From: Spirochaetia bacterium | GTDB lineage: Bacteria > Spirochaetota > Spirochaetia > JABMQR01 | DNA length: 46,713 bases | NCBI GenBank assembly: GCA_021736525.1 | Contig: JAIPFR010000003.1 | Coordinates: forward strand, 1 to 46,713 | Direction of reading: 5' to 3' | Shown here: piece after piece, positions 19,351 to 21,213 of the stretch | How positions within the stretch are numbered: the stretch's first letter is position 1 | How the letters are laid out: each line of letters opens with the position of its first letter | Program-made: the position numbers and the translations under genes | The notes under the pieces: model-generated | Database searches by the model: none | What the model was told of the DNA's origin: nothing | What the model saw: only the letters and a program-made list of their open reading frames with translations

Positions 19351-21213
19351 CTATAATGAAGAAATGACAGGCAGCTCAATAATAAACCTGCAACCTTTTG
19401 GTTGAGTATTCTCTATATATATAGAACCGCCAATTCTATCAATTATTGAATAACATAACGACAAACCAAGTCCGATGTTTTTGGAGTTTTTCTTTTTGGT
19501 TGAATAAAACGGAAGGAAAATCGATTCCATATCCTTTGCAGGAATTCCCGGTCCGGTATCCTTTATGACCAATCGAGCAATACAGCCAGTATCCGTTTCC
19601 AGAACTTGCGTGCTAATGGTTATTTCTCCACCTTCTGGCATTTCTTCCCGACTGTTTTTCACAATGTTTGTGAGCAACTCCCTGAATTCATTGGAATTCA
19701 AATCAGTAAGAACAGGTTTTTCGGAAAGCTGCAGAGAAAAATATATATTCTCATATTCTTTATTATTTTTAATCAAATTGATAAAGCCAGAAATCAATAC
19801 ATTAAGGTCGGTACGTTCCGTCTTTATAACATGAGCATCTGAAAAATCCACAAGTTTTGATACGATTTGCTTTATAATAAGCAATTCCTCTCGAAGTTCA
19901 GACATAGGATCTTCTAATTGCGCTGATGTTGCCTTTTGTTTGATAAATCGTAGATAGTTAAAGGCTATTTCCAGAGAGTTGTTAATTTCATGGCCAACTC
20001 CAGCCGCAAGCAGACCTATAGAAGCCATGTGATCAGAAAACATTATTTCTTTCTGAAAATTGAAGTAGTCCGTCACATCTTCAATAACGAGAATTTGACC
20101 AACCGTGGATACTCCATCATGAATCGGCAGGATTTTCAATGTATTAATTGTTTGTCTGCCGTTGGTCACTATCGGCACATTGAATAAGATTTTCAATTTT
20201 CTTGATTCAATAGAATCTTTCAAAGCGGCAATCAACCTCTCACTTTGCCATTTAAGCATTGATGATATTGGTTGATGCAGGTAGAACTCCTGTTCAATCT
20301 CAAAGGAATTTTCAAAATACTTATTAGCCATTACTATGTAGTTATTCACGTCAAGAACAAGCAGATTCACCGGCAAGTTTTCAAGAATTGCCTGGTTAAA
20401 ACGTAAAAACGTATAAAATTCTTCCTCTTCAGTCCGTGATTTTTGCTTACGGATATTTTCGGTATAGGTAAGTCTGATTAAATTTATCTTATCTATTGAA
20501 TTTGTCAGTCCTGAGTAAATTGTTTTCCCATTCCTGATAATTGAAACACGATCTGCATAATCATACAGGAGTTCAAAATTATGTGTAATAAAAAGAACTG
20601 CAGTTCCGGCTTTTTTGAGCTGAAACAAAATATTTGAAAAAATTGAAATATGCATATAGGGAAGTTGCGATATAACTTCATCAATAATAAGTACATCAGG
20701 ATTCTGCTCTGCAAGCCGTATCAGTTCTAGAATAACATAATCAGGTTCTTTCAACTGCTCAATCTTGTCTAGAACATGCAGTACAAGTCCATATTTACCG
20801 ATTATTTCTTCAGCTAGTGAAATCAACCGTCCTTTCGGTACCAGTATTCCTGTAAAGCTTGTTGGAGTTGTATAAAGGAGATGTTCCCAAACGGTGAATT
20901 TGGGATTTGCTGTCCTTGATTGATGTATCATTACAATGTGGGGTTTCTTTGTCTGTTTTCTACCAGTTTCTTTGGGAGGCTGAACTTTTGCTAGAATAAC
21001 TTTTCCTGAGTCAGGTTTTACTATTCCGCATATGACTCTTCCCAGTGTGGATTTACCACTCCCCTTTTCCCCAATTAACGCATGGATTTCTCCAGTTTTC
21101 ATAGAAAGACTGACATTATCAAGTATGTTATTAAAACGGTTTTTCAGGGATATATTCTCAAGTGAGACTATCGTTTTCTCAGGCTGTTCCGTTTTCGGCC
21201 TCTCTGATTCCAT
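19351..21213 (-). CDS. Soluble hybrid sensor kinase: sugar-ABC ATPase domain fused to PAS-HisKA-HATPase
   Basis: First ~250 aa: GEIHALIGEKGSGKST, IHQ Q-loop, VLIIDE, FITH H-loop, DRVSIIRNGK. Then PAS-like ILENLPVNLLVLD...MANKYF, H-box AAGVGHEINN, NIVKNS, DTGPGIP, FLPFYSTK and GLGLS. No TM segment seen. Confidence 0.9.
   Translation of the reverse strand: MESERPKTEQPEKTIVSLENISLKNRFNNILDNVSLSMKTGEIHALIGEKGSGKSTLGRVICGIVKPDSGKVILAKVQPPKETGRKQTKKPHIVMIHQSRTANPKFTVWEHLLYTTPTSFTGILVPKGRLISLAEEIIGKYGLVLHVLDKIEQLKEPDYVILELIRLAEQNPDVLIIDEVISQLPYMHISIFSNILFQLKKAGTAVLFITHNFELLYDYADRVSIIRNGKTIYSGLTNSIDKINLIRLTYTENIRKQKSRTEEEEFYTFLRFNQAILENLPVNLLVLDVNNYIVMANKYFENSFEIEQEFYLHQPISSMLKWQSERLIAALKDSIESRKLKILFNVPIVTNGRQTINTLKILPIHDGVSTVGQILVIEDVTDYFNFQKEIMFSDHMASIGLLAAGVGHEINNSLEIAFNYLRFIKQKATSAQLEDPMSELREELLIIKQIVSKLVDFSDAHVIKTERTDLNVLISGFINLIKNNKEYENIYFSLQLSEKPVLTDLNSNEFRELLTNIVKNSREEMPEGGEITISTQVLETDTGCIARLVIKDTGPGIPAKDMESIFLPFYSTKKKNSKNIGLGLSLCYSIIDRIGGSIYIENTQPKGCRFIIELPVISSL

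Follow-up and report, generated by a model that had tools for sequence, protein, structure and literature searches.

A family of soluble histidine kinases with an input domain related to the ATPase of CUT2 sugar importers

What can an ATP-binding cassette (ABC) nucleotide-binding domain (NBD) do at the head of a soluble histidine kinase? The question is raised by one gene on contig JAIPFR010000003.1 of a Spirochaetia bacterium (GenBank assembly GCA_021736525.1; GTDB lineage Bacteria; Spirochaetota; Spirochaetia; JABMQR01). The whole stretch analysed, positions 1 to 46,713 of that contig, is called the window. The gene, at 19351-21213, adjoins a sugar-importer operon of the CUT2 class, and its product, P0001, joins an NBD to a PAS domain and to the DHp and catalytic ATP-binding (CA) domains of a kinase. 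A first-pass annotation, made from the letters and a list of open reading frames (ORFs), had taken the protein for a fusion of a sugar-ABC ATPase with a kinase. We found that the fusion is an ancient, conserved family and that its input domain appears to descend from the first NBD (NBD1) of CUT2 ATPases; we tentatively propose that this domain couples the kinase to the adjoining transporter. Coordinates are collected in Table 1.

The ORF list and translation gave a single ORF of 620 amino acids (aa) with zero internal stops. Pfam matched ABC_tran at residues 31-180 (E 2e-18) and HATPase_c at 508-616 (E 1e-21). A PAS match at 273-380 (E 6e-4) lay under Pfam's cut-off; relatives showed PAS, PAS_4 or PAS_9 matches. 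P0001 had no HisKA match at E<=0.01, most relatives do match HisKA, and the H-box AAGVGHEINNSLE with H408 was present in P0001. H408, E409 and N412 of the DHp domain were invariant in all 73 family members aligned, and the CA boxes N516, N520, D552-x-G554-x-G556 and G581-x-G583 were likewise invariant. By its H-box, DHp and CA boxes, P0001 is a HisKA-class kinase, predicted to autophosphorylate and to transfer the phosphoryl group to a receiver; the only support for the partner in phosphotransfer is the adjoining, overlapping response-regulator gene. The NCBIfam AtoS model aligned with residues 271-616 (E 9e-52, 176 bits; the AtoS equivalog cut-off is 646). For residues ~13-260 the best NCBIfam models were YtfR, AraG and XylG (E 1e-34 to 1e-29), all far under their equivalog cut-offs. 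No membrane segment was predicted in P0001, whose top Kyte-Doolittle 19-residue mean was 1.35 versus 2.69 for the permease; across the family, a 19-residue mean of 1.6 or more is reached in 16 of 73 members (maximum 2.09). The uninterrupted ORF without a transmembrane segment and the NBD-PAS-HisKA-HATPase order, both proposed by the first-pass annotation, were thus confirmed by translation, by Pfam and NCBIfam searches and by inspection of the H-box, and the minus strand was added.

An AlphaFold2 model built from 73 family sequences reached a mean predicted local distance difference test (pLDDT) score of 82.6, with a predicted template modelling (pTM) score of 0.48 that makes the placement of domains unreliable. 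The NBD was modelled as strands and helices over residues 14-236 (block pLDDT mostly 79-96, and 61 at residues 81-90), followed by a linker helix at 242-256 with a short low-confidence hinge at 252-259. The PAS domain comprised an N-cap helix at 262-278 and a core at 283-379, the DHp helices ran from 381 to 427 and from 431 to 457, and the CA domain was modelled over 466-615. In a sequence search of the PDB, ThkA (3a0r) matched profile positions 261-611 and ABC NBDs matched ~7-237. Foldseek with the model retrieved PAS-kinases (4gcz, 3a0r) and single NBDs separately, and no PDB chain spanning both halves was found by either search.

The same architecture was common in protein databases. When 5.8 billion protein clusters were searched with a word index, ABC_tran and HATPase_c were found together in 72 other 90%-identity clusters, 600-625 aa long and 59-27% identical to P0001; the score then fell abruptly from 215 to 134 bits, where plain sugar ATPases start. 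In a profile search of 1.84 billion 50%-identity representatives, the best 150 matches all scored at least 412 bits and 133 of them were 585-646 aa long, giving a lower bound on family size of at least 133 full-length 50%-identity representatives among those best 150. Matches across both halves were found in 14 of 401 sampled genomes of the window's phylum (the window's own included), with up to 3-4 copies each, and 13 copies were found in 4 of 301 genomes sampled from a second phylum. A sample from a third phylum (around G401) yielded none in 301 genomes at E<=1e-100, an empty result that itself shows nothing; one database member is labelled Spartobacteria. When genome contigs were scanned with a profile of the family alignment, mostly generic kinases and ABC ATPases were returned, and two of the 80 loci (L001 and L059) were full-length members. 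No NBD1-NBD2-kinase form was present among the matches listed, which spanned 341-1085 aa with none of 1086 aa or more; this is weak evidence.

An assembly chimera, or a recent functionless fusion by accident, is vanishingly improbable. In its favour stand the metagenomic origin and the fragmentary state of the window's genome (1.19 Mb, 74% complete in 84 contigs, one copy of the kinase gene), and nothing else. The many homologues of the same architecture exclude a chimera, and copies occur in closed or near-closed genomes; on these two grounds the reading was rejected. The junction itself is also covered: a Logan contig of 43,839 nucleotides (nt) from run X2 contains the whole gene with 0 differences, and one of 1,767 nt from run X1 bridges the NBD-PAS junction without a difference. 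Runs X1 and X2 come from one lake-water study, possibly the source sample, and are not independent support; contigs of X3 gave an overlap of only 20 nt near the junction. The first-pass annotation had conceded that the fusion might prove to have no homologue, or a junction that reads do not bear out. The 72 clusters and at least 133 full-length representatives dispose of the former, and the X1 and X2 contigs, from that same study, speak to the latter. The fusion is an ancient, conserved family, not an assembly accident.

The input half was traced to one part of one class of transporter ATPase. In BLASTP, P0001 was 31% identical to NBD1 of the neighbouring tandem ATPase (15211-16707) over 224 residues (E 3e-28) and 21% identical to its second NBD, NBD2 (E 1e-6). 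Trees were built from 202 domains, of which 89 were kinase-family NBDs and the others came from adjoining tandem ATPases, other CUT2 ATPases (440-560 aa, among P0075-P0120) and a few unrelated ABC outgroups. With all 202 rows, FastTree placed the 89 kinase NBDs in one clade (support 100), nested among CUT2 NBD1 domains, with the NBD2 clade outside. IQ-TREE with the C20 model on a set thinned to 75 rows (one in three kinase NBDs, one in two NBD1 and one in three NBD2 domains, with outgroup and short forms) gave approximate likelihood-ratio (SH-aLRT) supports of 95 for the kinase clade, 90 for kinases plus NBD1 and 98 for a separate NBD2; the root rests on three distant ABC domains, and support within the NBD1 group is low. 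The window's kinase NBD was not sister to NBD1 of its neighbouring ATPase, indicating that the fusion is old; as far as the trees can tell, it appears to be a single event as well. Pfam, BLASTP and both trees thus agree with the first-pass proposal of an origin from NBD1 of an RbsA-type ATPase, and the view that the input domain descends from the NBD1 of sugar ATPases of the CUT2 (RbsA/XylG) type is supported. With one NBD only, P0001 would not itself count as a CUT2 tandem ATPase, akin to CUT2 NBD1 though it is. The short single-NBD ATPases of two related loci (L130 and L134) branched between the NBD1 and NBD2 clades.

Which functions the domain may have kept was judged from its motifs, in an alignment of 73 family members and in a joint alignment of the family with 50 CUT2 ATPases. 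In the Walker A motif G48, K54 and S/T55 were each conserved in 73/73 members (G48..G53-K54-S55 in P0001). The Q-loop glutamine Q98 was kept in 66/73, the Walker B aspartate D178 in 73/73, the catalytic glutamate E179 in 72/73 and the H-loop histidine H211 in 61/73, and all of these are present in P0001. By contrast, the signature reads LKEPDY in P0001 and L-x-L-S-D-R in the family consensus, without Gly-Gly, and the D-loop reads DEVISQL in P0001, with P180, T181 and E188 of CUT2 NBD1 unconserved among the kinases. The losses and retentions called in P0001 at first pass were therefore right, and they hold family-wide. Retention of the Walker A, Q-loop, Walker B Asp-Glu and H-loop residues leads us to expect that the NBD still binds Mg-ATP; with the signature and D-loop lost, it would no longer make the canonical ATP sandwich, and by these motifs it does not appear to be a working ABC ATPase.

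The sites conserved in NBD1 and relaxed in the kinases included Q160 and E163 of the signature helix and P180, T181 and E188 of the D-loop region, which form the NBD:NBD face, and further K23, V28, A30, N50 and T56. The family helix after the Q-loop retains the CUT2 consensus VAEN(L/I)F. A linker with the consensus I-D-K-I-N-L-I-x-L-A-Y-T-Q (D241 in 70/73 members, Y250 in 67/73) was conserved in the kinase family only. Mean pairwise identity was 36% for the NBD, 33% for PAS and 39% for CA; the NBD is as conserved as the other two and is not a decaying remnant. In the 50 CUT2 ATPases, NBD1 had intact catalytic residues and an already degenerate signature (L-S-V-G/A-E-Q-Q). NBD2 had the signature LSGGNQQK, with seven of eight positions at 100% and Gln159 at 70%, and a degenerate Walker A Lys, Walker B and H-loop. 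This division of intact and degenerate motifs agrees with passages on RbsA in PMC11466899, and alignment and passages alike uphold the first-pass account of a consensus site made from the NBD1 Walker A and the NBD2 signature.

The gene neighbourhood was compared in 32 related copies from two phyla: 16 from the window's phylum, 13 from the second phylum and three more (two in L148, one in L149). For the 16 copies, ~20 kb around each was taken and the ORFs were classified against the window's own proteins. An NtrC-type activator gene lay directly upstream of the kinase gene in 31 of the 32 copies (15/16, the sixteenth being at a contig end; 13/13; 3/3). A CUT2 transporter adjoined in 29 of 32, with binding protein, ATPase and permease all present in 14/16, 12/13 and 3/3; in L131 only the permease was visible before the 5.4-kb contig ended. 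The ntrC-like and rbsABC-like neighbours that the first-pass annotation wanted looked for are thus near-constant companions. In the window's phylum the transporter genes were usually divergent from the regulator, and clustering of all ORFs in these loci revealed no other recurrent gene family around the kinase. The closest homologues of the window's permease lay on contigs of 10742, 5378709, 84587 and 192852 nt, sizes equal to those of the contigs with the closest kinase homologues, which suggests that the whole module was inherited together. The stop of the regulator gene overlaps the start of the kinase gene by 35 nt (21179-21213), and overlaps of 4-32 nt recur in related loci, suggesting that the pair is translationally coupled. 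The adjoining ATPases were mostly tandem proteins of ~500 aa; single-NBD ATPases of 262-281 aa were encoded at L130 (5703-6500) and L134 (2623-3411 and 5908-6753), two of the three with LSGGQRQ.

Several loci showed duplication or damage. In L139/L143 (G910:C1) and in L148 (G404:C2), two family copies lay close together, and a separate regulator and CUT2 transporter accompanied each; 3-4 copies occur in some genomes, and the paired copies with their own transporters fit one kinase per transporter. In L124 (G281:C3, 9050-13735) a truncated kinase paralogue with an in-frame TGA covered profile positions 4-483 only, and the ATPase was split into 304 + 189 aa. The ATPase of L125 was split into 441 + 80 aa; these two loci represent either joint decay of kinase and transporter or frameshift errors of long reads.

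The regulator encoded at 21179-22531 has the receiver (REC), sigma-54 AAA+ (with GAYTGA loop) and HTH_8 parts of an NtrC-type activator, as judged from its sequence. A sigma-54-type -24/-12 element was found at 19182-19197, with the correct GG-N10-GC spacing; the next gene has two candidate start codons, ~25-60 nt downstream of the element. That gene encodes a tandem DJ-1/PfpI protein; its second ATG, near 19124 and with a GGGGAG ribosome-binding site, may be the real start. The repeats at 19279-19346 are a possible activator site, lying at a distance usual for such sites. A stricter regular expression (~1 match per 13 kb) matched at the same place and strand, ahead of the first gene of the transporter operon, in 9 of the 16 related loci, and also ahead of both L148 operons and the single L149 operon. 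In L129 a tenth, sigma-54-like match of this expression lay in a divergent gap, facing a gene for a secreted Big_5/ice-binding-like protein 735 nt away. A scan of 12900-26000 for sigma-70 promoters and terminators gave promoter-like sites at chance level and no terminator-like site at an operon boundary. Taken from gene order and motifs, a two-component system controlling the adjoining CUT2 uptake operon is well supported, and the transported substrate is probably a sugar or polyol.

We propose the following mechanism. P0001 would be a cytoplasmic AtoS/NtrB-like kinase with a paralogue of CUT2 NBD1 as its input module; with the upstream activator it would switch on, from the putative sigma-54 promoter, the adjoining operon of tandem DJ-1/PfpI, Zn-dehydrogenase, ATPase, permease and binding-protein genes. 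In ABC importers the coupling helix of the permease fits into a groove lined by the Q-loop region. Through this groove the kinase NBD would dock on the coupling helix of the cognate permease, alternating or competing there with the transporter's own ATPase. The conformation of the permease, set by the sugar-loaded binding protein or by transport, would act on the DHp helices by way of the conserved linker and PAS, altering kinase activity. Phosphotransfer, control of the operon, ATP binding and permease docking are what we infer here. That the NBD senses the transporter is suggested by its CUT2 NBD1 descent, by the near-obligate CUT2 linkage in two phyla and by a nucleotide site and Q-loop that are kept while the NBD:NBD face is lost. 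Docking on the coupling helix is the simplest physical link, as every NBD has it. As a whole, the reading that the NBD couples the kinase to the adjoining transporter, most likely on the permease, is the one we favour, tentatively and short of calling it probable.

A complex of two permease copies (58-row alignment) with kinase residues 10-256 (73-row alignment) was predicted, and the outcome was classed as 'weak support'. The score was 0.47 (runs 0.47, 0.47 and 0.36) versus 0.20 for the best control; runs agreed in at least 79% of contacts, and the pLDDT of the partner was at least 73. In calibration, 58 of 80 solved complexes passed the mark, as did 2 of 110 mismatched pairs; at scores of 0.60 or below the passes came from only 7 of the 80 solved complexes and from both of those mismatches. 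The first-pass idea of docking on the permease thus stays a proposal, with a weak modelling pass. Co-adaptation was assessed in 11 kinase/ATPase pairs (10 of the first 16 loci plus the window; L124, L125, L129, L130, L131 and L134 were dropped for split, short or missing tandem ATPases). Over the rest of the domain, outside residues 96-128, identity to NBD1 of the own locus was 0.308 versus 0.296 for other loci (p 0.027). Against NBD2, own-locus identity was not above other-locus identity in any region (residues 96-128: 0.130 vs 0.158, p 0.99).

A number of observations weigh against the proposed mechanism. Each complete adjoining transporter has its own ATPase (14/16 loci, the window, 12/13 and all three L148/L149 copies), so that the gene content does not require the kinase NBD at the permease, and the kinase NBD must share or compete for the permease or sample a sub-population. 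Weak passes of the complex prediction such as ours are more often wrong than right unless the pairing was likely beforehand; an NBD on a permease is a textbook pairing, and the score may therefore only mirror likeness to solved transporters. Over residues 96-128, identity to NBD1 was 0.282 for the own locus versus 0.262 for other loci (p 0.12), with no groove-specific signal, and the helix after the Q-loop deviates in P0001 itself (TVWEHLL vs the consensus SVAENLF). Two loci depart from the linkage: L129 (G143:C31) is without ABC genes within ~9 kb and has a LacI-type repressor and arabinose genes nearby, and in L140, of the second phylum, transporter genes occur only at a distance of ~7 kb. 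Downstream in L129 (4804-16130) lie genes for the LacI-type repressor, a ribulokinase-like FGGY protein, a class II aldolase/epimerase and an L-arabinose isomerase. Of the 13 second-phylum copies, just one had the promoter pattern where it was expected. Across the window sigma-54 patterns were not enriched (25 matches vs 25.6 expected), and only the position of the element and its recurrence in related loci carry weight, not this count. Finally, no rpoN was found in the 74%-complete genome of the window, although all five fusion-bearing relatives tested have it.

The strongest form of the idea is an ABC-importer-derived transmembrane receptor, in which binding protein, permease dimer and NBD-kinase dimer form one signalling complex and alternating access is read as kinase activity, instead of or alongside transport. 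We regard this form as rather doubtful. The first-pass version, with binding protein and permease as a dedicated receptor 'in place of RbsA', is weakened by the ATPase kept in every complete transporter. If true, the transmembrane-receptor form would be a 'transceptor' whose covalent link runs via the energising subunit. A soluble kinase would gain access to a sugar signal outside the cell, and communication between ABC transporter and kinase would have a natural model in which the two are covalently wired.

Three other accounts of the NBD were weighed. The NBD might bind cytoplasmic ATP or ADP without contact with the transporter and tune the kinase to the energy charge, a proposal that the family-wide Walker A, Walker B, Q-loop and H-loop residues, the solubility of the protein, the transporter's own ATPase in all complete loci and the one member without an adjoining transporter would all suit. 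However, it leaves both the CUT2 NBD1 descent and the CUT2 adjacency in 29 of 32 copies unexplained. ATP-driven dimerisation of NBDs normally needs the signature and D-loop, both lost here, and the CA domain of the kinase already reads ATP. We consider such energy sensing, in which ATP-costly uptake would be induced only when ATP is available and PAS or another input would supply sugar specificity, unlikely. The place of PAS is reversed in a second account, where PAS is the real sensor of a cytoplasmic sugar, polyol or metabolite and the NBD, without a part in signalling, is an accessory that might, for instance, stabilise the dimer or localise the protein. All members have PAS, the kinase half resembles AtoS and the PAS-kinase structures 4gcz and 3a0r match residues ~261-611. 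An accessory role sits poorly, however, with an NBD as conserved as PAS and CA, with nucleotide-binding residues kept across two phyla and with an NBD-PAS linker among the most family-specific conserved segments, and we judge it distinctly unlikely.

The third account keeps the transporter and changes the contact: the kinase NBD would pair in trans with a domain of canonical signature and sample or modulate the ATPase cycle. NBD2 of the neighbouring tandem ATPase and the single-NBD ATPases are the candidate partners; we consider such a pairing very unlikely. The catalytic Glu and H-loop His usually drift in sites that no longer hydrolyse ATP, and E179 and H211 are kept in the kinase NBD. That domain retains the catalytic half of the single CUT2 site, NBD2 carries LSGGNQQK with a degenerate Walker A Lys, Walker B and H-loop, and the reverse pattern of NBD1 and NBD2 is seen in the 50 CUT2 ATPases and in passages in PMC11466899. 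The ATPases adjoining in L130 and L134 are single-NBD proteins, two of three with LSGGQRQ. On the other hand, NBD2 is part of one polypeptide with its own NBD1, the loci show no recurrent gene for a free NBD2-like domain, and the kinase family has relaxed precisely in the D-loop region, which forms the NBD:NBD contact.

Table 1. Positions of the kinase gene, its domains and motifs, the associated operon and other sugar-sensing genes in the window
Feature	Position	Strand	Evidence
NBD-PAS-DHp-CA sensor histidine kinase P0001, 620 aa	19351..21213	-	ORF/translation; Pfam, NCBIfam; AlphaFold2 mean pLDDT 82.6
ABC NBD, residues 12-250, CUT2 NBD1-related	20464..21180	-	ABC_tran 31-180; 31% identity to neighbouring NBD1; trees
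Walker A, residues 48-55 GEKGSGKS	21049..21072	-	family conservation
Q-loop glutamine Q98	20920..20922	-	family conservation
Degenerate signature position, residues 154-159 LKEPDY	20737..20754	-	family and CUT2 alignments
Walker B, catalytic Glu (D178, E179) and degenerate D-loop, residues 174-184	20662..20694	-	family and CUT2 alignments
H-loop histidine H211	20581..20583	-	family conservation
Family-specific linker, residues 240-262 (IDKINLIRLTYTE...), NBD to PAS N-cap helix	20428..20496	-	conservation; AlphaFold2
PAS and N-cap helix, residues 262-380	20074..20430	-	Pfam PAS, AlphaFold2 PAS fold, Foldseek 4gcz/3a0r
DHp helical hairpin, residues 381-457; predicted phospho-acceptor H408 at 19990-19992	19843..20073	-	invariant H408; AlphaFold2
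CA domain, residues 466-616	19366..19818	-	HATPase_c; invariant N/G-box residues
NtrC-type response regulator (REC + sigma-54 AAA+ + HTH_8)	21179..22531	-	Pfam; GAYTGA loop, GENGTGKE Walker A
Candidate binding site of the activator, with TGTTTAC/GTAAACA in three copies and an imperfect palindrome of 23 nt	19279..19346	.	80-150 nt upstream of -24
Sigma-54-type -24/-12 element TGGTACGGATCCTGCT	19182..19197	-	pattern match in 192-nt gap after kinase, ahead of next operon
Tandem DJ-1/PfpI protein, 450 aa, first gene after sigma-54 element	17806..19158	-	Pfam, NCBIfam
Zn-dependent alcohol/polyol dehydrogenase	16732..17793	-	Pfam
CUT2 tandem-NBD ATPase (RbsA/AraG-like)	15211..16707	-	Pfam, NCBIfam
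CUT2 permease (BPD_transp_2, RbsC-like), proposed docking partner	14237..15211	-	Pfam
Periplasmic sugar-binding protein (Peripla_BP_4)	13239..14192	-	Pfam
Peripla_BP_4 proteins of three-component sensors	2866-3906; 32706-33716
His_kinase (YesM/LytS-type) proteins of three-component sensors, ~630 aa	258-2177; 33922-35802
AraC-type regulators of three-component sensors (second with REC)	3917-5827; 35786-36556

The system was compared with known ones. With the CUT2 ATPases (RbsA, AraG, XylG, MglA, YtfR) the kinase shares a homologous NBD1, nested in their NBD1 clade, with the same catalytic residues and the same, already degenerate type of signature; it differs in having one NBD, a PAS-kinase in place of NBD2 and further decay of signature and D-loop. 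With AtoS, NtrB and ZraS it shares the PAS-DHp-CA core, and a REC + sigma-54 AAA+ + HTH_8 partner (AtoC being the best match), and its putative target promoter is of -24/-12 type. AtoS and ZraS sit in the membrane and carry periplasmic sensors, and NtrB is under PII control, whereas the N-terminal sensor here is an ABC NBD. In the Pst system a separate adaptor, PhoU, links the ATPase PstB and the kinase PhoR. PstSCAB-PhoU-PhoR resembles the present case in that a binding-protein-dependent ABC importer reports to a PAS-containing kinase (parts of PMC12976172), and differs in its separate PhoU adaptor and in having no NBD inside PhoR. In BceAB-BceS, as passages of PMC9169098 and PMC3023708 describe it, ABC transporter and histidine kinase also form a single sensory unit, in which the actual sensing is done by the transporter. 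The Bce kinase, however, is an intramembrane-sensing protein of its own and meets the permease within the membrane, with an exporter-type transporter bearing a large extracellular domain and an OmpR-type regulator, whereas here a soluble kinase has its own NBD and the transporter is a binding-protein-dependent importer. With no transmembrane segment in the kinase and a permease of the BPD_transp_2 importer type, this is not a Bce-type module. CbrA/CrbS likewise join a transporter module (SLC5) covalently to a kinase, whose signal goes to a regulator of the NtrC family, CbrB (parts of PMC7096432 and PMC5715377). The part fused there is the membrane-embedded transporter; here it is the soluble energising subunit, with the membrane part in a separate gene. 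Only a soluble NBD being fused, P0001 is not a fusion of the CbrA/CrbS type. In MalK-MalT, the ATPase subunit of an ABC importer conveys the transport state to a transcription activator through the C-terminal regulatory domain of MalK; MalK acts on a separate activator and not through phosphorylation.

A comparison lies within the window itself, which contains two three-component sugar sensors (258-5827 and 32706-36556) adjoining further CUT2 transporters (6005-10561 and 38013-41623). There too the sensor of a CUT2 system has been recruited from a duplicate of a transporter component; the recruited paralogue is a periplasmic binding protein and the kinase is membrane-bound, whereas in P0001 the paralogue is a cytoplasmic NBD and the kinase soluble. 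One organism thus has, for the same transporter class, a recruited periplasmic component in two systems and a cytoplasmic one in a third.

No description of an ABC NBD-histidine kinase fusion was found in the full-text literature, subscription journals and supplementary files lying outside the search, and a term search of the 2005 signal-transduction census PMC1183210 gave no NBD-kinase fusion. The first-pass remark that no characterised example was known thus stands for the full-text literature searched, and the family, held in databases, is unstudied as far as that search reaches. Transporter-coupled two-component sensing is already known; the NBD-in-kinase form of it is new. Candidates for other NBD-kinase fusions appeared in the Protein Atlas (matches <0.9): proteins of ~852 aa with GAF_2 and of ~826 aa without a listed GAF, commonest in Actinomycetota, and a further cluster of ~515 aa in Spirochaetota. 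Pfam runs added P0322, an 851-aa relative with two HisKA stretches, and P0324, of 520 aa. The class of NBD-kinase fusions may thus extend beyond the family described here.

Among the remaining genes of the window, those upstream of the regulator encode a DeoR protein, a metallo-beta-lactamase-fold protein and an FGGY sugar kinase (Pfam). A tandem deglycase/protease-like protein at the head of a sugar-uptake operon, as encoded by the DJ-1/PfpI gene, is unusual. Two ORFs of 317 and 463 aa (28764-29717 and 36625-38016) had no Pfam match at E<=1e-5.

How information flows from an ABC transporter to a two-component kinase, as in the Bce, Pst/PhoU/PhoR and MalK/MalT types, is a long-standing question. 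To our knowledge, the contact in all studied transporter-kinase cases is between separate proteins and hard to trap. Here the energising domain of a transporter is welded to the kinase, in proteins of a uniform ~600-625 aa that form at least 133 full-length 50%-identity clusters and occur in at least two phyla. The system is compact, soluble and genetically simple, with four or five genes and a putative sigma-54 promoter of little expected background, and clear point mutants (K54A, E179Q, H408A) would allow one to ask whether the NBD senses the conformation of the permease. Current names such as 'ATP-binding cassette domain-containing protein' or 'histidine kinase/ABC-type ... ATPase' mask what would be regulators of sugar uptake. 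The fusion would also show that recruitment of transporter parts as sensors is not limited to the binding protein.

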